64,000 bases of DNA from Acidobacteriota bacterium (GTDB lineage: Bacteria; Acidobacteriota; UBA890; WLXD01). The notes below the pieces were generated by a model. The model was not told the origin of the DNA and did no database searches. It saw nothing but the letters and a program-made list of their open reading frames with translations. The translations under genes and the position numbers were made by a program. The stretch spans positions 2,724 to 66,723 of the forward strand of contig JAJCXT010000108.1 of NCBI GenBank assembly GCA_029263295.1. Direction: 5' to 3'. Position 1 is the first letter of the stretch. Every line of letters starts with the position of its first letter. Shown here one piece after another: positions 16,117 through 60,840 of the stretch.

Positions 16117-16145
16117 TATCGGTTTCCGATAATCAAAATCCGATA
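16117..16145. promoter_or_regulatory. Candidate operator of padR #1
   Basis: TATCGG-TTT-CCGATA 16117-16131, extra CCGATA 16140-16145. Confidence 0.65.
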
Positions 16146-16158
16146 CAGGGAACCACGC

Positions 16159-16500
16159 ATGTCACCCCGTACTGTGCTGCCGCTGCCGGCTACCAGCTTT
16201 CACATCCTCCTGGCCCTGGTCGACGGACCCGCCCACGGCTACGGCATCAAGCGCGTCGTCGAGGAGCGCACCCATGGTCGTATTCGACTGGCGGCGGGCA
16301 CTCTGTACGAAGCCATGCAACGACTGAGCCGGCAGGGACTGATTGAGAATACGGAAGCGCCCGAGGAGTTCTCGGGTTCGGGCCGAGTGCGCTTCTATCG
16401 CATCACGGACACGGGCGAGGCCGAGCTTGGCGACGAACTCCGCCGCCTCGAGCAGGACGTCGCCTTCGCACGCACGAAGGTGCCGGCGGAGCAGGGCTAG
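16159..16500 (+). CDS. PadR-family regulator #1
   Basis: HILLALVDGPAHGYGI, GTLYEAMQRL, FYRITDTG. Confidence 0.92.
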   Translation: MSPRTVLPLPATSFHILLALVDGPAHGYGIKRVVEERTHGRIRLAAGTLYEAMQRLSRQGLIENTEAPEEFSGSGRVRFYRITDTGEAELGDELRRLEQDVAFARTKVPAEQG

Positions 16501-19259
16501 TGGCTCACGGCCCCGCGACACGTCTGCACCGCTGCCTGTTGCGGCTCTACCCGGCCGGCTTCCGGCGATTGCACGGAGATCAGATCCTCGAGTTCTGGAC
16601 GACGCAGCGACGCGAGCGACGCTACGCGTTGCCGCTGTTCGGCACCGTGCGCTATTGGACCGACCTGCTCGGTGACGCGCTTGGCAGCGGCTTTCGTCAG
16701 CGGCGCGCTCCTGACCACGACGATCGGGGCAATCTGCCGCGCGCGCCGCAACGACGATCGCCGGGCAACCGCCCCACAACACCGTCCTCCTCCACAGTCC
16801 TCGGGAGATTCGACTTGCTCCGACAGGATCTTCGCTACGCGTATCGTTCACTTCGCCGTCAGCCGCTGTTCACGGTAGTAGCCATCGCGACGCTGGCTGT
16901 GGGCATCGGCAGCACCACGGCGGTATTCAGCATCGTCGACACGGTGCTGTTCCGGCCGCTGCCCTATACCGACCCTGCCGGACTCGTTCTTCTCGGCCGG
17001 CTCTCGGAGTCGAACGATCTCGACAGCCTGGCGCTCCCGGAGGTGCAGGCGCTGGCCCGTCTGGGCGCATTCGAAGGCGTTGCCGCTGGTCTCCACTACG
17101 GCGTGGATGTCCAGTGGGACGAGAGCGCCGAGGTGCTCAACGGGGCGAGCGTCGGCCATCAGCTATTCGATGTGCTGGGCGTCCAGCCGCTGTTGGGGCG
17201 TGTGTACTCTGCGGAAGAAGATGTTCCGGGCGGACCGCCAGTCATTCTGATCAGCGAGCGACTCTGGCGACGTCAGTTCGCGGGCGCGCCCGACGCCGTG
17301 GGCTCGACGATGGCGTTGAACCGCGAGCCGCACGTGATTCTCGGAGTCATGCCCGACAACATCAACTTCCCGGAGGCGGGCGCGGACTTCTGGACGCCAT
17401 TCCGCGACGCCGAGATTATTCGCGATCTCGACCTGAACCCCGACAGCCGCGGCATCACTTTCTTCAGCGCTGTCGCGAGGCTGGCGCCCGGAATTACACC
17501 CCAGATCGCTCGCCTTGGAGTTCAGACTCTCTTTCGCACGTTGGACGGAGAGGAAGAGGGCGAGGGCGAGGAGGTTCGTGGCTGGACAGAGTCGCTGCAC
17601 GAGGCAACGGTCGGTGGCTCGCGCACCGGACTGCTGCTATTCCTCGGCGCGGTCGGGCTGGTCTTCGTCATCGCCTGTGCCAATGTCGCGGGCCTGTGGC
17701 TGACCCGCATCGCTGGACGTTCTACCGAGGTCGCCGTACGCACCGCGCTCGGCGCGAGTCGACGCCGCATCGTGTCGCAGCTGCTCACCGAGAGCCTGGC
17801 GCTCGCCGCTGTAGGTGGTGCTGGCGGCGTGGTCGTGGCCATGGCCGTGCAGCGTGCTCTGCTCACCATCATCCCGGCGACGATCCCGCGCCTCGACGCT
17901 GTGGAGCTCGACGGACGGGTCATGTTGTTTGCGTTCGGCCTGTCGCTGTTGGCGGCCGTCGTATTCGGCGCGCTGCCTGCGCTGAGCGCGGCAAGCCGGG
18001 GAAGCGCCGAGATTCTGCGCGAGGGCGGACGCGGCGGAGCTGCGAGCACGAAGACGACGGCCCAGCGGCTACTCGTGATCGGTCAGGTTGCCATCGCCGT
18101 CGTACTGCTCGCCGGCGCTGGGCTGTTCGCCAACAGCTACGCCCGACTGCTCAACGTCGAACTCGGCATGCGTTCCTCGGGACTCATCGTAGCCCGCCTC
18201 TCGCCGACGCTCGGCGACGACGGGACGGAGGTCATTCGCAACTTCTACGCACAGGTGCTGCAGCGAGTCACCGCACTGCCCGGCGTTGATAGCGCGGCCA
18301 TCACCTACTCGCCGCCGATGGGGCAAAGCAACTTCCGCCAGACCGTGATGACCGAGACCATGGCCGAGGACGAGGATGGGATCTGGGCGGGCAACGTCAT
18401 CATCAGCCCCGGCTATCTCGAGGTCGTTGGCGTGCCCTTGCGGCGCGGCCGGGACTTCAACGCAGGCGACATCCTTGCCGCCCCCTACGTGGCCATCGTC
18501 AACGAGCAGATGGCCGCCGAGTTGTGGCCTGGAGAAGATCCGCTCGGCAAGCGCTTCAAGTGGGGCAACGGCCTGCAAGGGTCGCTCGATTCTTTCGAGC
18601 GGGAGTTCTTTCCCCGCGACTGGCTCACCGTGGTTGGCGTCGCGGGCAACGTTCGTCGCCGCAGTCTGGCCGAAGAGCCGATTGGCGAGTACTACCGTCC
18701 GCACGCTCAGATGTCGTGGCCGTCGATGGCGCTGATGGTCTCGACAACGGGCACGAATCCGAACCTGGCAACCGACTTGCGCCGTGCCGTCGCGGAAGTC
18801 GACGGCATGGTGCCGATCTCGGACGTACGTTCGGTGCAGCAGAACGTCGCCACTTCGGTGTCCGAGCCCCGCTTCCGCCTGCTGCTCGTCGGTGGCTTCG
18901 CCGTGGTGGCATGTCTGCTGGCCATGCTGGGCGTGTACGCCGTCATGGCCTTGACCGTGTCGCGACAAACGCACGACATCGGCATCCGCATGGCGCTCGG
19001 CGCCGCGCGCGCCAGCGTGAGGAGGCAGGTCGTTGTCGACGGCATGCGCCTCGCGATCATCGGCGCGGTCGTTGGCCTTGTTGGGGCGATCGGCGCGTCG
19101 CAGTTGATCGCGACGATGCTGTACGGCGTGGGACCCACCGACCCTCTGACGTTCGCCGGCGTATTCGTCGTGACTCTGCTGGTCGCGGGCGCCGCCTGCT
19201 ACTTCCCGGCACGCCGCGCCTCGCGACTGGACCCCCTCGCCGCCCTGCGCAGCGACTGA
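16500..19259 (+). CDS. ADOP-type duplicated MacB-like ABC permease #1
   Basis: QDLRYAYRSL, LAVGIGSTTAVFS, IACANVA, RTALGASR, IRMALGA, DPLAALRSD. Confidence 0.92.
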   Translation: MAHGPATRLHRCLLRLYPAGFRRLHGDQILEFWTTQRRERRYALPLFGTVRYWTDLLGDALGSGFRQRRAPDHDDRGNLPRAPQRRSPGNRPTTPSSSTVLGRFDLLRQDLRYAYRSLRRQPLFTVVAIATLAVGIGSTTAVFSIVDTVLFRPLPYTDPAGLVLLGRLSESNDLDSLALPEVQALARLGAFEGVAAGLHYGVDVQWDESAEVLNGASVGHQLFDVLGVQPLLGRVYSAEEDVPGGPPVILISERLWRRQFAGAPDAVGSTMALNREPHVILGVMPDNINFPEAGADFWTPFRDAEIIRDLDLNPDSRGITFFSAVARLAPGITPQIARLGVQTLFRTLDGEEEGEGEEVRGWTESLHEATVGGSRTGLLLFLGAVGLVFVIACANVAGLWLTRIAGRSTEVAVRTALGASRRRIVSQLLTESLALAAVGGAGGVVVAMAVQRALLTIIPATIPRLDAVELDGRVMLFAFGLSLLAAVVFGALPALSAASRGSAEILREGGRGGAASTKTTAQRLLVIGQVAIAVVLLAGAGLFANSYARLLNVELGMRSSGLIVARLSPTLGDDGTEVIRNFYAQVLQRVTALPGVDSAAITYSPPMGQSNFRQTVMTETMAEDEDGIWAGNVIISPGYLEVVGVPLRRGRDFNAGDILAAPYVAIVNEQMAAELWPGEDPLGKRFKWGNGLQGSLDSFEREFFPRDWLTVVGVAGNVRRRSLAEEPIGEYYRPHAQMSWPSMALMVSTTGTNPNLATDLRRAVAEVDGMVPISDVRSVQQNVATSVSEPRFRLLLVGGFAVVACLLAMLGVYAVMALTVSRQTHDIGIRMALGAARASVRRQVVVDGMRLAIIGAVVGLVGAIGASQLIATMLYGVGPTDPLTFAGVFVVTLLVAGAACYFPARRASRLDPLAALRSD

Positions 19260-19394
19260 TCCGCCCGGCCGCAAGGAGAGCGCGCCGCGCATCTGCCGAC
19301 AAGAACGGTCGCGGCGTTGGCCGGCAGGTGCGCGCGTCGAAGATCGGCGTAGACTCAGCGTGAACCTCGCCGTCGCCCACCCGGAGTACCGACC

Positions 19395-22649: not shown

Positions 22650-22673
22650 GATCCCGGGTCGGCGACCCTTGGG

Positions 22674-23183: not shown

Positions 23184-23320
23184 GTTGCCTCCGGTGTGAG
23201 GTGTCCGCGGCAGTGTCTCCCCTGCGCGGAGACTTTGCAACGGAGCGCGCTGACCGCCAGACTCGGAGTTGCTCCCTACGGACTCTTCGCTGCTCCAGCC
23301 TCCCCGACGACAGGACTCCT

Positions 23321-25360: not shown

Positions 25361-25474
25361 ACCGCGGGCCGCGACGGTTCGCTGCGCTCTTCTTCGGCTG
25401 AGGGCCAACGGCCGTCCGCGGCTCCTGTTACCTTTCGCCGATCACCGGGAGCCCACCCGCGGAAGAGTGCAGCT

Positions 25475-29669: not shown

Positions 29670-29712
29670 GAGCCAGACCCTCCCGCTAGGCTCTCGTTCG
29701 CTCCACGACTTG

Positions 29713-29760
29713 ATATGTCCAACGTTGTTGGTTTACTGTTGCCAACATTGTTGGACATAT
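29713..29760. promoter_or_regulatory. Candidate double operator of padR #2
   Basis: 19-bp inverted repeat ATATGTCCAACGTTGTTGG / CCAACATTGTTGGACATAT (2 mismatches); each arm holds CCAAC-N3-GTTGG; TACTGT between them. Confidence 0.75.
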
Positions 29761-29779
29761 TTCTTGGAGCGATGGATCA

Positions 29780-30112
29780 GTGAGTCGTAGCGACTACCTC
29801 GGCGAATTCGAACAGATGGTGCTGTTGAGCGTTCTGCGCCTCGGCGAGAACGCCTACGGCGTGACGGTGCACGAGGAAATCAGGCGAACGGCAGGCCGGG
29901 AAGTCCGCCGCGGCGCCGTCTATGTCGCGCTGGAGCGGCTCCAGGCCAAGGGCCTCGTCAGCTCCACCTTCGGCAGTCCTTCCACCGAGCGCGGCGGGCG
30001 CGCCAAGCGCTTCTACACCGTGGAAGCCTCGGGTCGTGCTGCCCTGCGCGCGTCGCGCGACGCCCTGATGAATCTGTGGAATGGCGTCGAGCCTGAACTG
30101 GAGAAGCTGTGA
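29780..30112 (+). CDS. PadR-family regulator #2
   Basis: LGEFEQMVLLSVLRLGENAYGV, GAVYVALERL, GGRAKRFYTV. Confidence 0.92.
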   Translation: MSRSDYLGEFEQMVLLSVLRLGENAYGVTVHEEIRRTAGREVRRGAVYVALERLQAKGLVSSTFGSPSTERGGRAKRFYTVEASGRAALRASRDALMNLWNGVEPELEKL

Positions 30113-32772
30113 GGGCGGCGACCTGGTTGATCGGCAGGCTTGTCGGCACTCCTGCCGCGCAGGCGATCGTAGGAGACCTGGTGGAGTCGGCGGGCGGCCA
30201 CGGCAGCCTGTGGCGCTCCTCCGAGGCGTGGCGTGTCGTCTTCAGTTTGATGAGCTATCAACTGCGGCGTTCTGGCCAAGAAGACCAGGGAGCCCCCGGA
30301 CCACTGCGGCCGCGTCCAGGAATGCCCGAGCACTCTGGCAGCTCCGCGCTTCAGGACGTGCGCTTCGCCTTGCGGATCTTTCGACGGCGACCGGTGAGCA
30401 CCGCCGTGGCGATTCTCTCGCTGGCGCTGGGCATCGGCGCCAACACGGCGATCTTCAGCCTCCTCGACGGAATCCTGCTGCGTCCCCTGCCGGTACCCCG
30501 GCCGGAAGAGCTTGTGACCACCGCCACGGTGTTCTCCTTCCCCGACTACGAAGACCTGCGTGACGCCTCCACCGACGAGTTGACCGGGCTGGCCGCGTGG
30601 TCGGCGTCGTCTCGGCCGTACAGCCTGGCCACCGACAATGGCGCGTGGCCCGCACTCACGGAGCTGACCACGGGCAACTTCTTCGACCTTCTCGAGTTCC
30701 GCCCGGCCGCCGGCCGGTTCCTGACTCTCGACGACGAATCCCGCCGCCTGCCCGTCGCAGTTCTCAGCCATCGCCTCTGGCAATCGGCGTTCTACGGCGA
30801 CCCGCTCGTGATCGGATCCGACGTGCGCGTCAACGGACTACCCGCCACGATCATCGGCGTCGCTCCGCCAGGCTTCCGCGGTACGCGAGTGAACAGGTCG
30901 GTGGATCTGTGGATGCCGCTTTCTCTCCACGCACAGCTGGCGCCCGGCTCGTTCGGGCGCCTCCGGCTCGATAGCCGCGAGACCCAGTGGCTTCGCGTGA
31001 TGGGTCGACTGCGCCCGAACACCGGGCTGGCCCAGGCCGAGGCATCGATGCTCGCGGCAGCAACTCGGCTACTCGAGCAACAGCCCAGCCCCTATCTCGA
31101 AGACTTCGAGAGTCTGCGCACGGCCACGCAGGCCGCAATCCCGCGGGAAGAGGAGGTTCGCGGCTTCTTGACCCTCATGATCGCGATGGTCGCAGTCGCG
31201 CTCCTCGTCGCCTGCACCAACGTCGCGAATGTCCTGCTCACCCGCACCACGGAGCGACGACGCGAGATCGGCCTACGCATGGTGCTTGGGGCGTCGCGGG
31301 GCCGCCTGGTGCGCCAGTTGTTCATCGAAAGTCTGCTGCTGTCACTGGCCGGTGGCGTGGCGGCGCTGTTCTTCGCGCGCTGGACGCTGGCCAGCGTGCA
31401 CTTGCTGCAAATCCCGGGTCGCATCGTCCTCGGCGACGTTCCGACCAGCATCAACGCTACGACCCTGGCGTTCACGATGGCCGTCGCCTTCGCCTGCTCG
31501 CTACTGTTCGGGGTTGGCCCCGCCCTCGCGGGGACCCGGCCGGACCCGGCGCGAATGATCAACGGGTCTGCGCCGCGTCGCGGCAACTGGAACGCACCCG
31601 TCACCCTGGCCACTATCCAGGTCGGCCTCACGCTGGCGCTGGTGTTCAGCGGCGGCTTGTTCCTGCGCAGCCTCTCGACGGTCCTCGAGGTCCCGCTCGG
31701 GTTCGATCCCACCGACGTTTACGTCGCTAGCGTCGACATCGGTGTAGTCGGGTATGACAACGACTCGGCCGCCACGTTCCGTCGCGAGGCGCTTGCCGGG
31801 CTCGAGAGCCTCCCGACGATCGAGCGCGCCGCGTGGGGCGTGTTCGTACCCGTGCAGGGCGGTATGCGAATGGAGTCGTTTCGCGTGGTCGGGCACGAAC
31901 TTCAAGAAGAGGAACCCGGCGACGTGGCTTTGAATTACGTGTCCGACGGATTCTTCGAAGCGCTCCGGGTGCCGCTCCTTGCCGGGCGTGCCTTCGCTGC
32001 CACCGATCGCGAAGGAACCGCGCCCGTCACCATTGTGAACGAGGCACTCGCCGACATCTTCTTCCCCTCCGGGGACACCGTCGGGGCGCGTCTGATCATG
32101 CCCGGGCCCGCGGGCATCCTCGAGATGGAAATCATCGGCGTCGCGGGTAACACCAAGCGCCGCGACCTGCGCGAGGAGTCCTCGCCCTACCTGTACCTGC
32201 CCCTCGCTCAGTGGAACTGGCTGGTAGGAACCGACCGCATGAAGATCGCCGTACGCGCGACACCGGGTGCCGCCGACACGATCGATTCGATGCGCCAGCG
32301 CCTGGCCCAGATCGATCCGGCGCTACCCATTACCGAATTGCGAACGCTCGATGACCAGCTCTTCGATCAGGCCATGCCGCAACGCGTCGGCGCCACGCTC
32401 CTCGGGATGTTCGGCGCCCTGGCGCTGGTGCTCGCAGCGGTTGGCGTCTATGGCGTGGTCGCTGCCGCGATGCTGAGTCGGGTCCGAGAAATCGGCATCC
32501 GTCGGGCCGTAGGCGCGAACGATCCGGACGTTCTCCGGCTCGTGCTGCGCCGCGGACTGCTCCCTGTAGTCCTCGGCCTTCCTCTAGGCTGGTTCCTCGC
32601 GTTCGCTGTCGCGCGGCTAATCGCTGGCTTCCTGCCCGGTCTGAGTCCGACCGATCCCACGACATTCGTGGCCGCCACCGTGCTCGTGTTCGTCGCATCG
32701 GCCGTCGCCTGCCTGCCTCCCGCGCTGCGGGCGGCGCGCCGCGACCCTGTTACCGCCCTCCGATCGGACTGA
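30109..32772 (+). CDS. ADOP-type ABC permease #2
   Basis: GTGA overlap; QDVRFALRIF, LALGIGANTAIFS, VACTNVAN, DPVTALRSD. Confidence 0.92.
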   Translation: MRAATWLIGRLVGTPAAQAIVGDLVESAGGHGSLWRSSEAWRVVFSLMSYQLRRSGQEDQGAPGPLRPRPGMPEHSGSSALQDVRFALRIFRRRPVSTAVAILSLALGIGANTAIFSLLDGILLRPLPVPRPEELVTTATVFSFPDYEDLRDASTDELTGLAAWSASSRPYSLATDNGAWPALTELTTGNFFDLLEFRPAAGRFLTLDDESRRLPVAVLSHRLWQSAFYGDPLVIGSDVRVNGLPATIIGVAPPGFRGTRVNRSVDLWMPLSLHAQLAPGSFGRLRLDSRETQWLRVMGRLRPNTGLAQAEASMLAAATRLLEQQPSPYLEDFESLRTATQAAIPREEEVRGFLTLMIAMVAVALLVACTNVANVLLTRTTERRREIGLRMVLGASRGRLVRQLFIESLLLSLAGGVAALFFARWTLASVHLLQIPGRIVLGDVPTSINATTLAFTMAVAFACSLLFGVGPALAGTRPDPARMINGSAPRRGNWNAPVTLATIQVGLTLALVFSGGLFLRSLSTVLEVPLGFDPTDVYVASVDIGVVGYDNDSAATFRREALAGLESLPTIERAAWGVFVPVQGGMRMESFRVVGHELQEEEPGDVALNYVSDGFFEALRVPLLAGRAFAATDREGTAPVTIVNEALADIFFPSGDTVGARLIMPGPAGILEMEIIGVAGNTKRRDLREESSPYLYLPLAQWNWLVGTDRMKIAVRATPGAADTIDSMRQRLAQIDPALPITELRTLDDQLFDQAMPQRVGATLLGMFGALALVLAAVGVYGVVAAAMLSRVREIGIRRAVGANDPDVLRLVLRRGLLPVVLGLPLGWFLAFAVARLIAGFLPGLSPTDPTTFVAATVLVFVASAVACLPPALRAARRDPVTALRSD

Positions 32773-48745: not shown

Positions 48746-51433
48746 TCACTCCGCCCGCAGCGCCTCGACCGGATCGACTCGCTGGGCGCGGCGTCCAGGG
48801 AGGACACAGGCGACCACTGCGATCGCTGCCAGCAGAACAGCTACCGCTGCGTAGGTGAGCGGGTCACGCACTGCCACCCCGAACACGAAGCCGCTGAGGA
48901 CACCGGCGCCGGCGAGGGTTATCGAAAGCCCCGCCGTCACGCCGAGCAGTACCGGCATCATGCCGCGGACCATGACGGTGCGCATGATGTCGGCGCCGCG
49001 CGCCCCGAGCGAGACGCGGACTCCGATTTCTCGTGTTCTGCCGGCGGTCGCGTAGGCGACCACGCTGTACACGCCGAATGCGGCGAGAAGCGTGGCGATC
49101 AGAGCGAAGGCCCCAAACAATCCGCTCACGCGCCTTTCGCCACCCCCGCTGCCGCCACCGACGGCTTCCATCGTCGTGACGGTATGGAACGGCAAGGCGC
49201 TGTCGAGACCACGCACAGCGACGCCGACGGCGCTGATCACGTCGTCGGTCGGTAGTTCGCTTCGCACCAGAAGGAACCCGCTCGCGCTTCCGTTCTGCGC
49301 CATGGAACCGTAGATGCTGGGCTCCTCCTCCGAAGTCAGACTCGACCGTCGAACATTGCCAGCGACGCCAACGACCGTGTACCAGTAGCGACAGTCCTCG
49401 GCGACTCGATCGAAACAGAGTCTCTCGCCTACCGGGCTGCGATCGGGGAAGTACAGATCGGCCAGCGCCCGGTTGACGATCGCAACTGGCTCCCCGTCGA
49501 GTTCCGCGCGTTCGAAGTCACGACCCTCTCGAATCGGCACGCGCATGGTGGCGAACAGTTCACGCGAGATCTCATCATGTCTCACGCCGACGCCGAACTC
49601 GTCGGGCGCCCAGCTTTCGGCACGAAAGTCGCTGCTCCAGCGTTGGTTGACGAATGGCAGGCGAGTGCTCATGCCGGCGCCGTCGATTCCTGGCAACTGC
49701 CGCAGCGAGGTCAGAAGTTCGTCAAAAAACGCTGCGCGCGACTCGCCGTCGACGTAGCCTGTGCGAGGCAACGAAAGGCCGAACACGGTTGTATCGTCGA
49801 CTTCGAAGCCCGGCTCGACGTGCGCGATCTCATCGAGTGTGCGGACCATCAGAGTCGCTGCAATCGCTACCGGGAGCACCAGCGCGACCTCTGCCGCGAC
49901 CAACAGAGCAGCGACGCGACGCGTGGAGCTACCGGCGGTCCCGCGCGTGGCGCCGCCAAGGTCAACGCCAGGCTCGCTACTCGTCGCTCTTAGTGCAGGC
50001 GCAAGGCCGAAGGCGATCCCGGTAACCAGGGCAGCGGCGAGGGCGAAGCCCAGCACGCGCCAGTCGAGCCCCACTCCCTGCATCCTCGGAAAGTCGGCGG
50101 GCAGGAGCCCGACGACGGCGCGCACACCAACCAGCGCGAGCGCGAGACCCGCCGCGCCACCTGCCGCGGCTAGCACCAGGCTCTCGATCAACGACTGGCG
50201 AATGAGCCTCAACCGCTGCGCGCCCAGGGCGCCCCGCAGCGCCATCTCCGCGCGCCGGTCTGTTGCTCGTGCCAGCTGCATACTCGCGACGTTGGCGCAC
50301 GCGATGAGCAGCACGAAGCCCACCGCAAGGAACAGCATGCCGAGCGGCGTTCGGGTGTCGCCCACTATCCAGTCGTGCAGCGGGATCGCACCGTTGCCCA
50401 TCGCCATGTTGGTGTCCGGGTACTCCCCCTGCAGCTGCGTGGCGATGGTAGCGAGTTCGCTTACCGCCGCCTGACGACTGGTCCCCTCGCTCAGTCGTGC
50501 GATCGCGCGCATCCCGTGCGCTCGGCGAAAGAAGGTCGCTGTTCGATTGGCCGGGTCCCATCCCAGGGGAGCCCAGGCGTCGACCGCGGCAAACGGGAAC
50601 TGCATCTCCGGAGCCGCGACCCCGACAACCGTGTACGGCTCCGCGTCGAGTGCTAGCGTGCGCCCGATGATCGCTTCGTCACCGCCTTGCTGTAACCAGT
50701 AGGCGTGGCTGAGCACGATCTTGCGTTCCTCGCCGGCCCACTCGTCACCGGCGTCGAAGCCGGTGCCCAGAATCAGTCCACTCCCGAGAACCCGAAAGAA
50801 GTTGCCGGTCACTTCGTTGACGTTCACTACCGTGGGTTCGCCCGCCACGAGGGTCGTGCGTTCGACCAGCCAGTCGTTGTGCGCCGCGATGTCGGTGAAT
50901 GTCTCCGCGCGATCGCGCCAATCGAGATAGTTGGCCGCTGCCACCTGGGCGCGATCCCAGCCGCGCTCCGGGTTGGTCTCGAAGAGCGCCATGAGCCGAT
51001 CCGGCTCGTGGAACGGCAGCGGCTTGAGCAGCACCGCGTCGATGACTGAGAACATCGCGGCGGTTGCGCCGATACCCACGGCCAAGACGATGATGGCCGC
51101 GAAGGCGAAGCCTGGAGCCGAACGCAGCGTGCGCACGGCGAACCGCAAGTCCTGAAGGATCGATTCCATGGCAGTAAGCAGCCTGTCGTAGGGAGATTCG
51201 GGCGCGGGTGGTTGGAACATCGAAGGCACCGGCTGGCCACCGCGACGAGCGCGGAAGCCGGAGACGGCCGCGTCTGTTATTTCGGACCAGCAAAGGCGTA
51301 CAACAGCACTCAGCCCGTGTGCCCGCGCGGCGGATAGTCGAATGTGGAAGACATCCTGGATTTCGTGGAGGTACTCGCGGCGCAACGAAGCCGGGTAGGC
51401 GAATAGCAGCAGCCTGTGCATGGCCCGGACCAT
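48746..51433 (-). CDS. ADOP-type ABC permease #3
   Basis: QDLRFAVRTL, LAVGIGATAAMFS, IACANVA, DPVEALRAE. Confidence 0.92.
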   Translation of the reverse strand: MVRAMHRLLLFAYPASLRREYLHEIQDVFHIRLSAARAHGLSAVVRLCWSEITDAAVSGFRARRGGQPVPSMFQPPAPESPYDRLLTAMESILQDLRFAVRTLRSAPGFAFAAIIVLAVGIGATAAMFSVIDAVLLKPLPFHEPDRLMALFETNPERGWDRAQVAAANYLDWRDRAETFTDIAAHNDWLVERTTLVAGEPTVVNVNEVTGNFFRVLGSGLILGTGFDAGDEWAGEERKIVLSHAYWLQQGGDEAIIGRTLALDAEPYTVVGVAAPEMQFPFAAVDAWAPLGWDPANRTATFFRRAHGMRAIARLSEGTSRQAAVSELATIATQLQGEYPDTNMAMGNGAIPLHDWIVGDTRTPLGMLFLAVGFVLLIACANVASMQLARATDRRAEMALRGALGAQRLRLIRQSLIESLVLAAAGGAAGLALALVGVRAVVGLLPADFPRMQGVGLDWRVLGFALAAALVTGIAFGLAPALRATSSEPGVDLGGATRGTAGSSTRRVAALLVAAEVALVLPVAIAATLMVRTLDEIAHVEPGFEVDDTTVFGLSLPRTGYVDGESRAAFFDELLTSLRQLPGIDGAGMSTRLPFVNQRWSSDFRAESWAPDEFGVGVRHDEISRELFATMRVPIREGRDFERAELDGEPVAIVNRALADLYFPDRSPVGERLCFDRVAEDCRYWYTVVGVAGNVRRSSLTSEEEPSIYGSMAQNGSASGFLLVRSELPTDDVISAVGVAVRGLDSALPFHTVTTMEAVGGGSGGGERRVSGLFGAFALIATLLAAFGVYSVVAYATAGRTREIGVRVSLGARGADIMRTVMVRGMMPVLLGVTAGLSITLAGAGVLSGFVFGVAVRDPLTYAAVAVLLAAIAVVACVLPGRRAQRVDPVEALRAE

Positions 51434-51434
51434 C

Positions 51435-51821
51435 TCAGTCGTGTCCGCCCGAGGCGGCCTCGGGGGCCACGTCGCTAGGAAGCAGCAACTTGAGTCGGGC
51501 GTCGCTGACGCGCGCGGCGAGGCGCTCTGCCTCTGCCGCCGCCACCTCGCGTCCCAGTCGCGTCAACCCGTAGGTTCTACCTCTGGACGCCTTCGCGCCG
51601 TTCTCCTCGGCCGCCGCGAGCAGTCCATTCTTCTGCAGTCGTTGAATGGCCAGGTAAAGCGTGCCGGTGCTCGAGCGCAACGGCTCGCCACTGCGCTCCT
51701 CCACTTCCTTGATGATTCCGTAGCCATGCCGGGCCCCGTCGGCGAGGGACAGCAGGATCTCGAACGACAGTGGCGTCAGTGGCAGGAAGTCTGCGGGGAC
51801 TGCGTGGTTGGCGGAGCTCAT
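51435..51821 (-). CDS. PadR-family regulator #3
   Basis: EILLSLADGARHGYGI, GTLYLAIQRL, YGLTRLG. Confidence 0.92.
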   Translation of the reverse strand: MSSANHAVPADFLPLTPLSFEILLSLADGARHGYGIIKEVEERSGEPLRSSTGTLYLAIQRLQKNGLLAAAEENGAKASRGRTYGLTRLGREVAAAEAERLAARVSDARLKLLLPSDVAPEAASGGHD

Positions 51822-51844
51822 GGCGGGACCTTCCGAAGGGAAAC

Positions 51845-51876
51845 AGGTTGAATATCAATATGTTGAAATTCAACCT
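51845..51876. promoter_or_regulatory. Candidate double operator of padR #3
   Basis: AGGTTGAAT...ATTCAACCT outer inverted repeat; GTTGA-ATA-TCAAT 51847-51859 and GTTGA-AAT-TCAAC 51862-51874. Confidence 0.72.
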
Positions 51877-51934
51877 ATTCCAGATCCCTCTACCGCGTCA
51901 AGTCCGCAGCAGGAGGCGCAGCGCGGCTCCTCTG

Positions 51935-52010
51935 CAGACAATCTACAAGAAAATGACCCTTCCCCTTGACAATCTACAAGAACCCGCCACACTCTTGTAG
52001 ACGATCTAGG
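51935..52010. promoter_or_regulatory. Candidate triple operator and promoter of padR #4
   Basis: GACAATCTACAAGAA at 51937-51951 and 51968-51982; inverted TCTTGTAGA 51993-52001; TAGA-CGA-TCTA 51998-52008; TTGACA 51966-51971. Confidence 0.72.
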
Positions 52011-52075
52011 GAAGAATGTGCTTTCCTTACTCGACCAACGAATCCCCACTGTCACCATCACGCCACGAGGCACCC

Positions 52076-52408
52076 ATGACCAAGGCCAACGTCGACCTGC
52101 TTCAGGGAACCCTGGACATGCTCGTTCTCAAGACTCTGCAGCTCGAGGCCCAGCATGGCTGGGGAATCTCGCAGCGTATCCAGCAGATGTCCAAGGACGT
52201 GCTGCAGGTCAACCAAGGCTCGTTGTACCCGGCGCTGCATCGACTGCAGCGGCAAGGGCTCATCGGGGCCGAATGGGGAACGTCGGAGAACAACCGACGC
52301 GCGAAGTACTACAGCCTGACCGCCAAGGGTCGAACCCAGCTCACCGCTGAAAGGGCGAACTGGGAGCGCTTGTCCGCGGCGGTCACCGACATCCTGCAAA
52401 CCGTCTAG
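52076..52408 (+). CDS. PadR-family regulator #4 (acidobacterial type)
   Basis: [51 protein letters not shown]. Confidence 0.94.
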
Positions 52409-52418
52409 AGGCACTGCC

Positions 52419-55073
52419 GTGAGCACGGGGAGCTGGAAGAACTGGTTGACGCGCCTGCGCGGCGAAGGTCGCCCCGGTGCCGACCGCGAACTCGAGGACG
52501 AGGTCGCGTTCCACCTGGAAATGGAAACCAGGAAGTACGTCGAGCAGGGCTACGAACAAGATGAGGCGGAGCGACGCGCGCGCATGGACTTCGGCGCAAT
52601 CCAGAAACACAAGGAATCGTGCCGTGATGAACGACAGGGAAATCACTTCGACATGTTGATGCAAGACGTCCGCTACGCCCTCCGCACACTGGGCAAAAAC
52701 TGGGGATTCGCCACTGCGGCGATTCTGACGCTGGCGCTGGGAATCGGCGCCAACACCGCCATTTTCAGCGTCATCTACGGGGTTCTCGTGCGGCCGCTGC
52801 CCTACGAGAACGGCTCGCGTCTGGTGCTGCTAAAACCGGAGATCGCTGGCACCGGCGCGGTCCAGACCTCGATTCCGGAGCTATACGATCTGCGCGAGCA
52901 GACGTCGACGCTCGACGAACTCGTCGAGTACCACAGCATGTTCTTCGTGCTCCTGGGCCGCGACGAACCGGAGCGTGTTCAGACCGGCGTCGTCTCGGAT
53001 AACTTCTTCGACACCCTGGGCGTCGCACCACTGCATGGTCGAACGTTCGTCGAAGGTGAGGACGCCCTCGATTCCGACGCAGTGCTCGTCTTGACCTACG
53101 ACTACTGGCAACGCGCTTTCGGCGGTGACCCCGACGTCGTCGGCCAGGTCTTCGAGATGAACACCCGGCCACACACGGTCGTCGGAATCCTCCCGCAGAT
53201 TCCGCAGTTTCCCGTCACCGTGGACGTGTACATGCCAACCTCGGCCTGTCCGTTCCGGGCGAACGCCGAGCGCAACATGGCCGGCGACCGCAGTGCTTTT
53301 CGCAATCTCTTCGTCTTCGGGCGACTCGCAGAAGACGGCTCGGCAGCGACCGCAAACGCGGAAATATCCAACCTCGCGCAACGCTTCGCGGACGAGTATC
53401 CCGATGACTACACCGACGAAGTCGGCTACCGGGCGGGCGTCGTCGACCTCAAAGAGGAACTCACCCGCAACGCCCGGCCTGTGCTTCTCATGCTCGTGGC
53501 GACCGCAGGACTCGTGCTCCTGATCGCCTGTGCCAATGTAGCGAACTTGAGCCTCGCCCGCGTGATGAGCCGCGAGTCCGAAGTGGCCGTACGCGCGGCG
53601 CTGGGAGCCAGCCGCGCACGCCTCATCCGCCAGTTCCTGACCGAGAGCACGGTTCTCGCGCTGCTCGGAGGAGCCCTGGGCCTGGTATTTGCCTACGCAG
53701 GACTCGACATGCTGGTCAACTTCGCGGCGGGCTACACGCCGCGAGCGCCGCAAGTGAACATCGACGGCTGGGTGTTGCTGTTCACCCTTCTCGTGTCCGT
53801 AGGCACAGGATTGGTGTTCGGCACCTTCCCCGCGCTACCGGGTACGCGCGACCTGGGAAGCGCGATCAAGGAAGGCGGGCGAACCACGGCTGCTGGCGGC
53901 CTGCGTTTGCGCCGGGCGCTGATCGTATTGCAGGTGGCGCTATCGTTCGTCTTGTTGGTCGGCGCGGGGCTAACGCTTCGCAGCCTGTCGGCACTGCAGG
54001 CGATCGACCCGGGCTTCGAGACAGAGCAGGTTCTCACCGCCCGAATTTCGATCGACTTCACTGCCTATAATGACGGGGTCGACCGGCACGCCTTCCTCGG
54101 AGAGTTAGCGCGAGTAGTGGGGGGTCTGCCGATCGCTCGCAACGCCGCGCTGACCGACCGGCCGCCATATCGGGCCAACAACCCGCGCTTCGGCCAGTTC
54201 ATCATCGACGGTCGCGCGGTCGAGGAGACGGCAACTCCGCCTCGGTTCCAGCGAACCGTCGTGACATCACAATACTTCGACGCCCTCGACATCCCGGTGT
54301 TGGACGGTCGTGCCTTCACGGACAACGACAGCACCGGCGAGGCCGCGGAGGTGGCCATCATCAACGAGAGTCTCGCGCAGGAGTATTGGTCCTCGGAGAA
54401 CGCGATCGGCTCGCGGATTTCGTTCGATCAAGGCGAGACGTGGATCAGCATCGTCGGCGTCGTCGGCAACACACGAGTGGACGGCCCGGAGACGCCCGTC
54501 ACGCCGGAATTCTACCGACCCTTCAACCAGGCCGGCATGCCCACCTGGCTGGTGGTGCGCACGGTAGGTGACCCCGACAGCGCCGCGCGGGCAATCAAGG
54601 ACGCAGCCTACTCGCTGGCTGCCAACCCGATTAGCGACATCCAGTCGTTGGCCACCCTGCGCGACGACGCCGTCGCCTCGCCGCGTCTTACAGCGTCGCT
54701 ACTAGGCGTGTTCGCACTGCTAGCGCTCGCCGTCACGCTTACGGGGATCGCGGGAGTGATGGCATTCGCCGTGTCGCAGCGAACCCGCGAGATGGGACTT
54801 CGGCTGGCACTCGGCGCGCAGCCGCGCGGCCTTCTCAACATGGTGGTGCGGCAGGGCATGGGCCAGGTCGTGGCCGGCTTGGCTCTCGGTGTCGCCGGCG
54901 CCTTCGCGTTCGGCCAGATTCTGACCGACTTGTTGTTCGAGGTGAACGCCAGCGATCCGGCTACCTTCGTAGCAGTGATCATCGTGCTCGCGGCGGCGGG
55001 CCTGGTCGCGGTGGTGATTCCGGCACGTCGCGCCGTCACCATCGACCCGGCAACAGCCTTGCGCTCAGACTGA
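52419..55073 (+). CDS. ADOP-type ABC permease #4
   Basis: Prefix ELEDEVAFHLEMET...ARMDFG; QDVRYALRTL, LALGIGANTAIFS, DPATALRSD. Confidence 0.94.
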   Translation: MSTGSWKNWLTRLRGEGRPGADRELEDEVAFHLEMETRKYVEQGYEQDEAERRARMDFGAIQKHKESCRDERQGNHFDMLMQDVRYALRTLGKNWGFATAAILTLALGIGANTAIFSVIYGVLVRPLPYENGSRLVLLKPEIAGTGAVQTSIPELYDLREQTSTLDELVEYHSMFFVLLGRDEPERVQTGVVSDNFFDTLGVAPLHGRTFVEGEDALDSDAVLVLTYDYWQRAFGGDPDVVGQVFEMNTRPHTVVGILPQIPQFPVTVDVYMPTSACPFRANAERNMAGDRSAFRNLFVFGRLAEDGSAATANAEISNLAQRFADEYPDDYTDEVGYRAGVVDLKEELTRNARPVLLMLVATAGLVLLIACANVANLSLARVMSRESEVAVRAALGASRARLIRQFLTESTVLALLGGALGLVFAYAGLDMLVNFAAGYTPRAPQVNIDGWVLLFTLLVSVGTGLVFGTFPALPGTRDLGSAIKEGGRTTAAGGLRLRRALIVLQVALSFVLLVGAGLTLRSLSALQAIDPGFETEQVLTARISIDFTAYNDGVDRHAFLGELARVVGGLPIARNAALTDRPPYRANNPRFGQFIIDGRAVEETATPPRFQRTVVTSQYFDALDIPVLDGRAFTDNDSTGEAAEVAIINESLAQEYWSSENAIGSRISFDQGETWISIVGVVGNTRVDGPETPVTPEFYRPFNQAGMPTWLVVRTVGDPDSAARAIKDAAYSLAANPISDIQSLATLRDDAVASPRLTASLLGVFALLALAVTLTGIAGVMAFAVSQRTREMGLRLALGAQPRGLLNMVVRQGMGQVVAGLALGVAGAFAFGQILTDLLFEVNASDPATFVAVIIVLAAAGLVAVVIPARRAVTIDPATALRSD

Positions 55074-55085
55074 GTCGGCTGGCCG

Positions 55086-55505: not shown

Positions 55506-57758
55506 TCCGGGCCGCACGCCGGCGGGACGCCGCGCGGCCACGTGGGCGACATCGAAGACGTTCTGCAGCGTGGCGTTGAGCCGAGTGTCGGTGCCAAGGT
55601 TCCAGCCGGCGGTCAGATCGACCACGGCGAACGCCTCCGTTCCGGTGCCCAGTTCGATGGGCCCGCGGCCCGCCACGGTCCGCATCGCGCTACCGGCGGT
55701 CAGCGTCGCATACGCGTCCCAGGCAGATCCTTGCACGCCACCGGATATGTGCACCTGGTGCTCCGGTAGGTACGGGATCTCGTCGCCCGCTTCGACCTCG
55801 CCCCAGGGCTCGTAGTCGCTCTCGAAACTCGAGAGGAACTCGCCGCGAGTCCACGTGTATCCGAGTGATACCGGCACGCCCACAGAGGCCTGGGCCGGCG
55901 CGATGTTCCACGTGCCCGAGACCTCGGCGCCCCACACGCGAGCCTTGCCGCCGTTGAACTGATCGCCCGTGCCCTGGCCGCCGCCCGAGAGCGTGTCGTT
56001 CCCCAGCAAATTCACGTAGCCGTTGAAAAAACCGGCAGCGGAGAACGCCCCGCCGAGGCCACGGTAGCGGCCTCCCAACTCGTAGTTCACGCTGGTTTCC
56101 GCCTCGACTTCGGCAGCAGCGCCCGGTGCCGGCGGCGCGAACCCGCGGTGCACGCCGGCGAACAGCATCCCGTCATCGCCCACCCGGTAGTCGAGACCGA
56201 TGCCCGGCACCAGCACGTTGACGCGTGAATCGCGGACGCGACTGGCCGCGCTTCGATCCGGATCGTCCTTCTCATAGTCGGTTCGTGTCATACCAATCGT
56301 CTCGAAGCGCAGGCCCGGAGTGATCCCCAGTTTCCCGAGGACTGCGCGATCCTGAGCAAACAACGCCCATGCACGGGCATCGCTAACGCGATTGGATTGG
56401 CTGCCGGGGGCACCGACACTGGTGAGCAGTTTCTGGCCGCCGATCATCTGATAGCCGTCTTCCGACTGGAAGCGATCCTCCCGATCGACGTGGTAGCGCA
56501 CGCCGACTTCCAGATCGTGGCTAGTCGCCGCCCCGCCCGTATGCAGGCCGACGACGGTCTGGATCCCTTCCCCGAAGTAGCTGCGATTGTTGTGCCGCTG
56601 CTTGAGAGCGTCCGGCGTGCTCTCAGCGCCGCGCAGGATGGCCAGTTCGTCCGCGTACACGTCAGGGGTGTCGAGCACCGAACTCAGACTGGCCCCGGCC
56701 ACACTCTGTAACTTGTACCAGTCGCGCCGAAAGTCGTTGCGGTAAACCACCGTGGTGACGTCCACCGCCGCGCTGAGGACTCCGTAGTGACGAAGCTGGA
56801 CCTGGCTGTGTTCCAGGTCGATCTGGTCGTGCTGCGAAGCGGCGTAGCGCCGGTTGGGCTGGGCGGCGAAGTCGAGATCGGTAAGGCCGAGATAGGTCTC
56901 GTCGCTGACCTGATCCGTGTAGCCCACCTTCGCCTCGATCTCATGGAACGAAGTGCCCCGTCCGACGCTGCGATAGCGCATCTTGCCGAGGTAGTCGCTC
57001 AGGCGAAAGCCGGCGTCGCCGCCGCCGTCAACCTGTTTGAAACCGTCGGTGCGAATCTGGTAAGTCTCCAACATCCAGCCCCAGCGACCCGAGTTGCCTC
57101 CGACCGTGAGACGGCCGCGCGCTGTCGCGTTGTTGCCACCGCCGACATTGGCGAGCAAATCGAGATTGGCGTCAGGAACACGCGTCGAGACCAGGTTCAG
57201 CGCGCCGCCGTTGGTGCGCGGTCCGAACTTGATCTGGCTGCTCCCCTTGCGAACCTCCACGGCTTCCATCCGCGCGGCCGTCGGGAAGTAGTAGGCCGAC
57301 GGCGCCGCGTACGGCGCGGGCGAGATCAGCACCCCATCTTCCATCAGCGTGATGTTGGCCGAGCGCTCGCCGCCCGATCCGCGCATGCCGATGTTGGGCC
57401 GCAGTCCGTAGCCATCCTCCTCCTGGATGTTCACTCCCGGAACCGAGCGCAGGATCCGGTGGATATCGGCAAATCCCGCCTGCGCACGAAGCAGTTCGGC
57501 GCCTTCCAGTCGGTCGGCGGAGCCGCCGATGAGTTCGAGGTTCTCGGCGCTGCCGACGACCATGATCATCTCGTCAACGCGCGCCGTGGAGGGCTTCTCG
57601 CCGGACTGCCCCTCCCTGGCTTGCGGCGGTTCAGACTCCTGCTTCGCAGGCTCCTCCGTCCGTGCAGGTTGCTCCTGCGCAGCGGTGGGAAACGCGATGG
57701 CGGCGGCAAGAAGCGTGTACGAGACACCGCGCGGAATGACCGTCCTCAGCCTGAACAT
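55464..57758 (-). CDS. TonB-dependent receptor, FecA-like
   Basis: Plug VPGVNIQEEDGYGLRPNIGMRG, LMEDGVLISPAPY, IKFGPRTNGGALN; barrel ending RPGLSRTIAVGVTYQR. Confidence 0.88.
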   Translation of the reverse strand: MFRLRTVIPRGVSYTLLAAAIAFPTAAQEQPARTEEPAKQESEPPQAREGQSGEKPSTARVDEMIMVVGSAENLELIGGSADRLEGAELLRAQAGFADIHRILRSVPGVNIQEEDGYGLRPNIGMRGSGGERSANITLMEDGVLISPAPYAAPSAYYFPTAARMEAVEVRKGSSQIKFGPRTNGGALNLVSTRVPDANLDLLANVGGGNNATARGRLTVGGNSGRWGWMLETYQIRTDGFKQVDGGGDAGFRLSDYLGKMRYRSVGRGTSFHEIEAKVGYTDQVSDETYLGLTDLDFAAQPNRRYAASQHDQIDLEHSQVQLRHYGVLSAAVDVTTVVYRNDFRRDWYKLQSVAGASLSSVLDTPDVYADELAILRGAESTPDALKQRHNNRSYFGEGIQTVVGLHTGGAATSHDLEVGVRYHVDREDRFQSEDGYQMIGGQKLLTSVGAPGSQSNRVSDARAWALFAQDRAVLGKLGITPGLRFETIGMTRTDYEKDDPDRSAASRVRDSRVNVLVPGIGLDYRVGDDGMLFAGVHRGFAPPAPGAAAEVEAETSVNYELGGRYRGLGGAFSAAGFFNGYVNLLGNDTLSGGGQGTGDQFNGGKARVWGAEVSGTWNIAPAQASVGVPVSLGYTWTRGEFLSSFESDYEPWGEVEAGDEIPYLPEHQVHISGGVQGSAWDAYATLTAGSAMRTVAGRGPIELGTGTEAFAVVDLTAGWNLGTDTRLNATLQNVFDVAHVAARRPAGVRPGLSRTIAVGVTYQR

Positions 57759-57810
57759 CGTGGAATCCTCAGCGTGTACTCGGAAGTTGGCGTCTCTTCG
57801 TCGGGCGCTT

Positions 57811-57829
57811 ATTGAGACTGCGTCTCAGT
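57811..57829. promoter_or_regulatory. Fur-box-like site
   Basis: ATTGAGACTGCGTCTCAGT, near 7-1-7 inverted repeat, 53 bp upstream of the receptor start. Confidence 0.6.
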
Positions 57830-57987
57830 TGCAATATCGACTGTAGCCCATTCACGCCGGACCCGAGCTGACTTCCGGGCTCACCTGTCATGCAGCTGTC
57901 ACATCGAGGTCCACGCCGGGTTTCGAGGCTACGTCCTCGGCGTTTCTTCAGGGTCCTCGGGGGCTGCGCGGGAGGTCGGCTGGACGG

Positions 57988-59745
<1,758 letters not shown>

Positions 59746-59864
59746 GCGGTCCTCTCGTGCGGGGCCGGTCGGGGTTCCGACGTCGGCCGAATCTATTCAA
59801 CCGGCGCCTGAGACTCAAACCGCTGACTTTCCCTCCGGACACAGTGTGCTCCGGCGCCGTGGAC

Positions 59865-60677
59865 TCAGAGGTGGCGCAGAAAGGCTTCCGGGCGGTTGAG
59901 GAAATCGCGGGTCAGGGTCACATGCTCGAGGTCGTCGTATCCGACCTCGCCTATCGGCGCCTGATCGAAGCTCAGGATGCGAGCGCCCGACGCCGCCATG
60001 AGAATCGGCGAATGCGTGCAGACGATGAACTGGCAGTCGCGCTCTGCCGCTGCCGTCATCAGGACCGACAGCAGCGTCAGTTGCCTCATCGGTGAGAGGG
60101 GCGCCTCTGGCTCGTCGAGGAGGTACAAACCACCCGGCGCCAGTCGCTGCTCGAAGAAGTTGAGAAACTGCTCGCCGTGCGAGCCGGCATCAGGATCCGC
60201 GCCATACCGGCGGCGCAGTTCGGCGATCGACTTTGTGTAGGGAGCACAGCGCCGGGCGAGCTCGACCTCCGGAAGATCGGCATGTTCGGTTCGCACGCGG
60301 TGAACCTCCGCCTCGAGTTCCGCGATCTCCTCCTTCGTGCGGTTGACGAAGCCGAAGAAGTCCTCAGCGCGCAGGAAGAAGCCGCGCCGGGTTCGCCGGG
60401 TCCAGATCAGGCGCATCGCTTCACCCAGTGGTCGCACGTGGCGCAGGGAGGCGTCGAGGTCGATCGACTCGCTACCGGCTGCCACCGACTCCGTGGCCCA
60501 GGCCAGCGCCTCGAGGAAGGTGGACTTCCCGGAACCGTTCTCGCCGACCAGAAAAGTGATGGGTGTTGTCAGGGCGACGCAATCGAGCTCGCGCAAGGTC
60601 GGAACGTGGAACGGGTACACGTCGGCCGGACTGTTCTCATGCTCGATGCGAACTTCGCGAAGATGAATCGTCGGCAC
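59865..60677 (-). CDS. Stand-alone ABC-like AAA ATPase (COG3910-like)
   Basis: GENGSGKST, LRAEDFF, SHGEQF, LYLLDEPEAPLSP, FIVCTHSPIL. Confidence 0.85.
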   Translation of the reverse strand: MPTIHLREVRIEHENSPADVYPFHVPTLRELDCVALTTPITFLVGENGSGKSTFLEALAWATESVAAGSESIDLDASLRHVRPLGEAMRLIWTRRTRRGFFLRAEDFFGFVNRTKEEIAELEAEVHRVRTEHADLPEVELARRCAPYTKSIAELRRRYGADPDAGSHGEQFLNFFEQRLAPGGLYLLDEPEAPLSPMRQLTLLSVLMTAAAERDCQFIVCTHSPILMAASGARILSFDQAPIGEVGYDDLEHVTLTRDFLNRPEAFLRHL

Positions 60678-60817
60678 TCACTCTCTCCCCTACTGCAGGA
60701 TCGCCTCAGCACTGTGGCGGAGCATTATGGCTGCTGGCGTCGCCAGAGGCTCGTGGCTCACGCGGAATACCTGGCGTCCTTGCAGCCGACCAACGTCAAG
60801 CCCTATAGTGGTCGCTG

Positions 60818-60840
60818 TTTACTTAACTGAGTTAACTAAA
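60818..60840. promoter_or_regulatory. Candidate operator of padR #5
   Basis: TTTA-C-TTAAC-TGA-GTTAA-C-TAAA, ending at the first ATG (60840). Confidence 0.7.

Follow-up and report, generated by a model that had tools for sequence, protein, structure and literature searches.

Predicted operator palindromes upstream of five paralogous padR genes in an acidobacterial genome

A 64,000-nucleotide stretch of DNA from an Acidobacteriota bacterium (C108:2724–66723; the whole stretch is called the window below) carries five paralogous padR genes, numbered here #1 to #5, each directly followed by a gene for an ADOP permease. Palindromes lie upstream of all five padR genes, and the locus raises the question of what they do. 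The original prediction, made from the sequence letters, took them for a paralogue-specific operator code that keeps five autoregulatory circuits insulated from one another. That paralogous repressors each act on a separate palindrome in their own promoter is a textbook principle. The case is notable mainly for its scale, with ~90 padR-ADOP pairs in the genome and nearly all sites different.

Our analysis suggests that the palindromes are quite probably operators of the PadR proteins encoded immediately downstream, which would repress their own padR-ADOP operons. The predicted operator layout, a 15-bp site centred on a base, is new within a known kind of system, and the type of switch is an expected one.

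Dyads at the predicted promoters of the five padR genes

All five palindromes were found where they had been described when the sequence was read directly. They are given below with the promoter elements around them. Here and throughout, G000 is the source genome, G001 is a genome of the same genus, and G002, G006 and G003 are further sources of orthologues.

16091..16119 (+): promoter-like site of padR#1, GTGACA-17-TAATAT, from a consensus scan; the −10 overlaps the left dyad arm
16117..16131: predicted operator dyad O1, TATCGGtttCCGATA = TATCGG-ttt-CCGATA (6-N3-6)
16132..16146: degenerate second site of #1, ATCAAAATCCGATAC, with the right half-site CCGATA at 16140–16145
29710..29737 (+): predicted promoter of padR#2, −35 TTGATA (29710–29715) and −10 TTTACT (29732–29737), read from the orthologue alignment
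29719–29731: predicted operator dyad O2a, CCAACgttGTTGG = CCAAC-gtt-GTTGG, between −35 and −10
29742–29754: predicted operator dyad O2b, CCAACattGTTGG = CCAACA-t-TGTTGG, just 3′ of the −10
51847..51874 (−): two adjacent dyads of padR#3, centres 15 bp apart, upstream of the minus-strand gene
51862–51874: #3 site 1, GTTGAaatTCAAC on the forward strand, GTTGAAtTTCAAC on the minus strand (51874–51862)
51847–51859: #3 site 2, GTTGAataTCAAT on the forward strand (4/5 pairs), ATTGAtatTCAAC on the minus strand (51859–51847)
51872..51901 (−): predicted promoter of padR#3, −35 TTGACG (51901–51896), 18-nt spacer, −10 TAGGTT (51877–51872), from the orthologue alignment
51939..51951 (+): third, distal half-site copy of #4, CAATCTACAAGAA, present in G002 and G001
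51966..51971 (+): predicted −35 of padR#4, TTGACA, within a ccccTTGACA that does not vary among five genomes
51973..52001: main dyad of padR#4, TCTACAAGA-N11-TCTTGTAGA (9-N11-9), in five genomes
51998–52008: TAGA-cga-TCTA, made of the end of the #4 right arm and a conserved ATCTAG (52004–52009)
60780..60809 (+): predicted promoter of padR#5, TTGCAG-18-TATAGT, read from the orthologue alignment
60823–60835: predicted site O5, TTAACtgaGTTAA, equally a 6-N1-6 palindrome, TTAACTgAGTTAA, TTAACT-g-AGTTAA; between the −10 and the ATG

The dyads lie on or adjoin predicted core promoters, recognised by the scan for #1 and through conserved boxes in the orthologue alignment (TTGACG-17-TATATT, TTGACA and TATAGT). 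At the place of the −10 of #1, G001 has TATTAT. The orthologues of #2 carry TTGATA/TATGCT and TTGCAT/TAGACT, those of #3 carry TTGACG-17-TATATT or TATCTT, and those of #5 have an invariant TATAGT with TTGCAG or TTGCGG as the −35. For padR#4, [TC]ACTCT is the probable −10, which would overlap the right arm. The patches that hold the sites are rich in AT, as had been claimed: padR upstream DNA has a GC content of 55%, versus 63% in control upstream DNA. The accompanying claim that all sites sit just upstream of the start codons has to be amended for #4. Its conserved start is ATG 52073 with GAGG upstream, not 52016, and the dyad is located ~70 nt before it.

In general, the dyads are kept in orthologues from G001, G002, G006 and G003 at 63–94% protein identity, while the flanks diverge. 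For #1, the G001 orthologue (79% amino acid identity) has the same TATCGGTTTCCGATAATC-N4-TCCGATAC, again between diverged flanks. For #2, ATATGnCCAACAnTGTTGn-N9/10-CCAACATTGTTGnnCATAT is kept in three genomes, and the CCAACAATGTT.. of O2a is found in G002 and G001. The outer flanks of the #2 dyads are conserved as well (ATATG, 29713–29717, and CATAT, 29756–29760), and both dyads are nested in a larger inverted repeat, ATATGTCCAAC...GTTGGACATAT (29713–29760). The #3 pattern [GAC]TTGAwTTTCAA[CG]-rT-ATTGATmTTCAAC has been retained in four genomes (63–81% full-length amino acid identity), directly 3′ of TTGACG-17/18-TATATT/TATCTT/TAGGTT. In G002, the outermost pair of #3 site 1 is changed on both arms, from G..C to C..G.

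At #4, ccccTTGACA-ATCTACAAGA-N10/11-cTCTTGTAGA-NN-ATCTAG is kept in five genomes, and in G006 both arms have changed together (TCTACA to TCGACA). All five genomes have T[AC]GA-N3-TCTAG, in which the spacer varies. Two imperfect copies had been reported next to TAGA-N3-TCTA; they do exist, but as copies of a longer word, CAATCTACAAGA. At #5, TATAGT-N8/9-TTTACTTAACTnnnTTAACTAAATG is kept in orthologues. The right arm of #5 in both orthologues is ATTAA, not GTTAA, which reduces the inverted reading to 4/6, while the alternative reading as a direct repeat, TTAACT-N2-TTAACT (60823–60838), stays perfect. A direct repeat thus appears to fit the orthologues at least as well as an inverted one.

Among orthologues the central triplets vary (GTT/AAT, ATT/TTT, TAT/TCT, CGA/TGA/ACA/ATA/GTG) and the arms are fixed. 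This supports the view that the central spacer is not read. A genome-wide search found the full sites of #2, #3, #4 and #5 nowhere other than at their own loci.

The region around padR#4 has some features of its own. The distal half-site is situated between the divergently oriented padR#3 and padR#4, 31 bp farther upstream than the proximal copy, and might serve looping or a second dimer. Between the predicted operator and the ATG, the ~65-nt leader (52010–52072) contains a stretch, AATCCCCnnTGTCACCATCAC...CGAGGCA, which is conserved in four orthologues and has the GAGG ribosome-binding site at its end. Although the genome contains 16 occurrences of the half-site ATCTACAAGA, a #4 regulon was rejected, since the core TCTACAAG outside the #4 promoter always looks coding by context, typically as Ile-Tyr-Lys codons of repeat proteins.

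Excess of dyads and agreement with PadR clades

On the basis of a tree and of the recognition helix, the PadR proteins fall into four classes:

class A: #4-like, helix 'QGSLYPAL'
class B: contains #1 and #3, helix 'GTLYxA'
class C: contains #2 and #5, loop two residues shorter, helix 'GAVYVAL'
class D: helix 'DGTVYPIL'

The helix strings quoted earlier for the five PadRs proved correct, and the cores of the palindromes do group with PadR subtype, with #1/#3 in class B, #2/#5 in class C and #4 in class A.

A lone 5-N3-5 dyad means little because there are 148 perfect ones in the window. The 500-nt stretches before the five padR genes contain five of them, where 1.16 would be expected (Poisson P=0.007). 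When spacers N0–N11 were tested in these upstream stretches, several dyads with 5-bp arms were seen only at N1 and N3; there was one at N5, one at N10 and two at N11, and none at the remaining spacers.

Upstream of 92 padR genes, perfect dyads with 5- or 6-bp arms were 3–6 times as frequent as in dinucleotide-preserving shuffles, chiefly at the odd spacers 1, 3, 5, 7 and 11. Compared with 694 control upstream stretches of the same genome, odd-spacer dyads were 2–3 times denser and even-spacer dyads 1.1–1.8 times (mostly ~1.2 times); the control stretches themselves had no spacer-parity effect. We also tested the classes separately in 144 loci, a set enlarged by paralogues and orthologues from relatives. 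In class B, a perfect 6-N3-6 dyad was present in 17 of 44 loci versus 1.6 in shuffles. Class C was enriched 3–5 times at N1, N3, N5, N7, N9 and N11, and the enrichment of class A was mostly at N5 and N9–N11.

A universal rule of a 3-nt spacer was rejected on these counts: odd spacers are enriched generally, class A prefers N5–N11, and a subclade named after its 'PANLYR' helix uses N0/N2/N6. The shared geometry that had been proposed for all five sites holds for four of them, with #5 doubtful. Class A, #4 included, has long spacings (9-N11-9).

The dyads of the 'PANLYR' subclade, which belongs to class B, are even-centred, unlike those of its odd-centred relatives (G000 C55:~47320, C4:~13690 and C2:~15610). 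They read ATATATGATCGCGATCATATAT (11-N0-11), GCATATATGT-N6-ACATATATGC, and TAGTCA-N2-TGACTA recurring every 15 bp. A class-C padR gene at G000 C33 8239 has, instead of a dyad, a perfect 23-bp tandem direct repeat (GATATGTACTAGTTTGTAGAAAC, two copies) located ~60–105 nt upstream.

A comparison of motifs upstream of padR loci, split by clade, agreed with the expectation that motifs track PadR phylogeny: the arms follow clades across genera and the flanks are random. Between PadRs of different genera at ~60% identity or more, the 15-mers match at 13–15 of 15 positions, whereas neighbouring 15-mers match at ~2–6 of 15, as random sequences do. One such pair is TGCTACATTGTAGTA and TGCTACAATGTAGCA (G022 and G013, 64% identity). 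The 15-mer is still shared by a cross-genus pair at 51% identity (TTAAACAATGTTTAA and TTAAACATTGTTTAA); another example is a pair at 45% identity, CTAGCATTGATAGTG and CTAGCATTGTTAGTG. PadR pairs below ~50% identity in general shared no arms. Within class C, the inner AC-N3-GT or GC-N3-GC is mostly common and the outer positions differ; class B arms mostly start with T[AG], and in them it is the inner positions that vary.

Insulation, specificity and rival readings

Could the dyads be operators of circuits that are not insulated, with paralogues cross-binding as a network or one PadR controlling several modules? We consider this unlikely, even though some of the sites point that way. TATCGG-N3-CCGATA, the O1 word, occurs elsewhere in the genome only upstream of the paralogue C92_94071, where it stands twice in tandem, and the helix core of this paralogue is GTLYEA, the same as that of #1. 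The insulation of #1 is doubtful for this reason. Additionally, the arms of #1 and of #3 site 2 are alike except at 2 of 6 positions (TATCGG vs TATTGA), AAC-N3-GTT is common to #2, #5 and C32_19070, and the related cdPadR1 binds many promoters in vitro (PMC5050560). What speaks against cross-binding is that any 6-mer arm word is common to only 9 of 820 locus pairs, most of these words being ATATAT-like and the rest belonging to recent duplicates (C40/C66) or close paralogues, and that the full #2–#5 sites are unique.

Within one layout, the arms differ among paralogues and seem to be inherited with the PadR clade, and most of the ~90 modules are probably addressed separately. A residue-to-base code, which the original prediction implied, was not demonstrated. 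For pairs below 60% or below 45% identity, a Mantel-type permutation test of helix identity versus arm identity gave rho of 0.07–0.11 (p 0.03–0.16) and was too weak to accept such a code. There is a hint of one candidate rule, the sole one, by which CA-N3-TG arms would go with an Arg that directly follows the conserved Tyr. In class B, the arms of PadRs with this Arg end in CA in 5 of 5 cases, compared with 0 of 8 among the others (Fisher p=8e-4, not corrected for phylogeny); the five arms, from G000 and relatives, are TAACCA, TTCACA, TAGACA, TCCGCA and TATCCA. In the strong sense of the words, neither "insulated" nor "code" is established.

It is rather improbable that the palindromes are RNA or DNA hairpins, for example one that terminates the preceding gene (#2) or one in the leader that hides the start codon (#5). 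Folding gave −29.3 kcal/mol for #2 (z −7.0), −19.5 for #3 (z −5.7) and −8.8 for #5 (z −3.2), the small stem of #5 includes the AUG, and a scan called both #2 dyads terminator-like. These z-scores are a by-product, however, as base-pairing between two copies of the same palindrome is automatic. The G002 version of #3 site 1 is still symmetric within itself (CTTGAttTTCAAG) and no longer complementary to site 2. Site 1 of #2 lies between the −35 and the −10, upstream of the predicted transcription start, and so would be outside the padR mRNA, and in G001 no U-tail follows the #2 structure. Sites #1 (z −1.1) and #4 (z −1.8) fold no better than shuffles. It is the sequence of the arms that is conserved, and it covaries with the PadR clade. 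On the grounds of the G002 symmetry, the position of #2 and the z-scores of #1 and #4, the hairpin reading was rejected for #1–#4; for #5, a leader hairpin has low odds.

It is very improbable that the palindromes arose by chance in AT-rich promoter DNA and have no specific function. Perfect 5-N3-5 dyads are numerous in the window, and 4-bp arms such as TAGA/TCTA often arise by chance. This reading is excluded, however, by the excess and the spacer parity, which are particular to the DNA upstream of padR genes, and by the conservation of the dyads between diverged flanks in as many as five genomes.

We thus prefer to see the palindromes as operators of the adjacent padR genes. In such a system, a dimer of the PadR subfamily 2 (PadR-s2) type would bind a dyad that overlaps or abuts the −35/−10/start region of its own operon and would repress both genes, which amounts to negative autoregulation; two dimers would bind where two dyads lie 14–23 bp apart. 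In classes B and C, the site would be a ~15-bp dyad centred on a base pair, with 5–6 bp arms and a central 3 bp free to vary. In class A (#4, the true TIGR03433 type), the 9-bp arms would be separated by about two turns of the helix. The ADOP permease would probably sense an envelope signal, and its cytoplasmic N-terminal prefix would release the PadR in the style of HAAS-PadR dyads.

Several observations weigh against the operator reading. Of 86 padR loci, 41 carry a perfect AT-rich dyad whose arms are 6 bp or longer, so that about half of the paralogues are without one, and the layout of the dyads is not uniform across PadR classes. The correlation between helix and arms is weak among distant pairs, and the #1 arms are common to another paralogue, C92_94071. 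The consensus scan did not find the predicted promoters of #2–#5, whose boxes were read by eye. Finally, #5 is only 4/6 symmetric in orthologues, lies in a short leader 3′ of its −10, and could act at the RNA level.

A more far-reaching scheme seems possible to us but doubtful. In it, the genome would hold a library of several dozen mutually orthogonal repressor/operator pairs built on 2–3 PadR scaffolds (e.g., 6-N3-6), in which a few recognition-helix residues, at the start and after the Tyr, would set the arms. The PadRs would be wired to class-matched ADOP prefixes, and the ~90 modules would work as parallel, insulated one-component transmembrane circuits in place of two-component systems.

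If the operators are real, a single genome would provide tens of ~110 amino acid repressors with distinct 15–29-bp operators. This would make a test bed for the divergence of winged-helix specificity after duplication and for the avoidance of cross-talk among ~90 paralogues, and it might supply synthetic circuits with orthogonal parts. The sites would also constitute the first cis-regulatory map of the large, uncharacterised acidobacterial PadR-ADOP expansion and would extend the PadR operator repertoire beyond ATGT-N8-ACAT.

The padR-ADOP modules and known PadR systems

Exactly five PF03551 genes lie within the window (C108:18927, 32545, 54263, 54847 and 63614). They score 40–76 bits against a cut-off of 27, which assigns them to the PadR family. 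The permease directly downstream of each matches TIGR03434 at 750–860 bits (cut-off 622), and at all five junctions the two genes overlap or are at most 10 nt apart. The pairing was said to be known, and it is indeed catalogued, as TIGR03433/TIGR03434. The modules are as follows:

16159..19259 (+): module #1; padR#1 16159–16500, class B, helix AGTLYEA; ADOP 16500–19259
29780–30112 (+): padR#2, class C, helix RGAVYVA; ADOP 30109–32772, 4-nt overlap
51435–51821 (−): padR#3, class B, helix TGTLYLA; ADOP 48746–51433 (−)
52073..55073 (+): module #4; padR#4 from 52073, class A, GAGG upstream of the start; ADOP 52419–55073
60840–61181 (+): padR#5, class C, helix PAAVYVA; ADOP ATG 61178, end 63859, 4-nt overlap

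The five PadRs are 110–128 amino acids long. Their best solved relatives are LmrR (3F8B/3F8C), cdPadR1 (5DYM), Rv3488 (5ZHC) and bcPadR (4ESB/4ESF), and LmrR is the closest one for #1 and #4. As judged from their sequences, they are predicted to belong to PadR-s2, the LmrR-like group of ~110 amino acid proteins with a winged helix-turn-helix and a single C-terminal helix. In the phmmer search with padR#2, the artificial multi-RecA fusion chains 3CMU, 3CMT and 3CMV ranked above the PadR structures. This is probably an artefact of a summed weak repeat match, as no single stretch passes.

With the TIGR03433 model (padR_acidobact, cut-off 101.8 bits), only #4 passes, at 156.3 bits; #1, #2, #3 and #5 reach 58.5, 41.7, 60.2 and 28.8 bits. 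The same division is seen in the permeases. The prefix of the #4 permease matches NF038403 (perm_prefix_1), and those of #1, #2, #3 and #5 match no Pfam or NCBIfam model. Compared with the catalogued TIGR03433/perm_prefix_1 pairs, therefore, only #4 fits. The N-terminal prefixes of the ADOPs are 80–105 amino acids long and come in four sequence types, which match PadR classes A–D exactly in this genome:

class A prefix: perm_prefix_1 (ELxEExxFHLE...FG)
class B prefix: 'YRxLLxxYPxxFRR'
class C prefix: 'PPRLAxWLL...LGDLxEE...WYWRQ'
class D prefix: 'WVPRxxRxxWRREWxAEL'
N-termini of the window ADOPs, #1 to #5: 16500–16820, 30109–30350, 51433–51160 (minus strand), 52419–52660 and 61178–61460

The one-to-one match between prefix and PadR class suggests class-specific protein contacts between PadR and permease.

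PadR-s2 proteins described in the literature control their own expression through inverted repeats located over their promoters (PMC5050560, PMC3506622). LmrR of Lactococcus lactis, itself a ~110 amino acid PadR-s2 protein, is an autoregulating repressor which also controls an adjacent membrane transporter (lmrCD), again through inverted repeats over the promoter (PMC3506622, PMC5050560). Its box, ATGT-N8/10-ACAT, has an even centre and half-site centres ~12–14 bp apart (PMC3506622), whereas the class B/C dyads here are ~15 bp long and base-centred, with half-site centres ~9 bp apart. LmrR senses drugs directly; here the permease prefix is the likely signal input. At up to one mismatch, we found no match to the canonical PadR box, ATGT-N8(-10)-ACAT, in #1, #2, #4 or #5. 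Site #3 has one N9 match with one mismatch, which merely overlaps the dyad.

The PadR-s2 autoregulator cdPadR1 of Clostridioides difficile likewise uses inverted repeats with an AT-rich core that overlap the −35/−10 (PMC5050560). The spacing of its TACT-N11/12-AGTA motif resembles the N11 of #4, and the arm sequences differ (PMC5050560). With ~200 genomic motif matches, cdPadR1 has a broad regulon (PMC5050560); here, each full site other than that of #1 occurs only at its own promoter.

The PadR of Bacillus subtilis belongs to PadR-s1, with a large C-terminal domain, and is a single regulator rather than a member of a paralogue set. Its dimer reads an 18-bp palindrome, C-N-TG-N-A-N6-T-N-CA-N-G (6-N6-6), symmetrically, through base contacts of His38, Ser39, Gln40 and Tyr42 at the start of α3 and of Tyr20 in α2 (PMC5728393). 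These contact positions (the α2 start and the residues just before and at the conserved α3 Tyr) are those that vary among the five helices here. The seven-residue helix strings begin at the equivalent of His38 (PMC5728393) and are thus reasonable candidates for specificity determinants.

The HAAS-PadR-like winged helix-turn-helix dyads of Ravi et al. (2024) include fusions to FtsX-like/MacB permeases (PMC11237479). As in the modules described here, a standalone PadR stands beside a membrane protein; the three-helix N-terminal domain of that protein (PMC11237479) has a candidate counterpart in the perm_prefix_1 of the #4 permease. We found no description of the operators of acidobacterial PadR-ADOP pairs in PMC11237479 or among the papers that full-text searches on operators returned; the search by ADOP and TIGR names was swamped by unrelated word matches. 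Snowprint (PMC10858194) similarly identifies conserved inter-operon inverted repeats by repressor genes from a comparison of homologous loci, as a general tool that was not applied there to the acidobacterial PadR expansion (PMC10858194).

The synteny of the five modules is preserved in G001 (C1:469–518 kb), and more orthologues come from G002, G006 and G003. A contig scan with the ADOP of #2 recovered only a G002-like metagenome-assembled genome (Acidobacteriota OFTM137) and one distant Sulfopaludibacter locus, and added no new orthologues. In G001, padR#2 alone has 59 matches at E≤1e-15. In the source genome (3.36 Mb in 122 contigs, 78% complete, ~65% GC), there are 93 PF03551 matches and at least 67 ADOP genes, and an open reading frame of at least 700 amino acids begins at −25 to +40 nt after padR in 69 of 86 analysed PadR genes, mostly with a 4-nt overlap. 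For a metagenome-assembled genome of this size and completeness, such an expansion of a single regulator family is unusually large.

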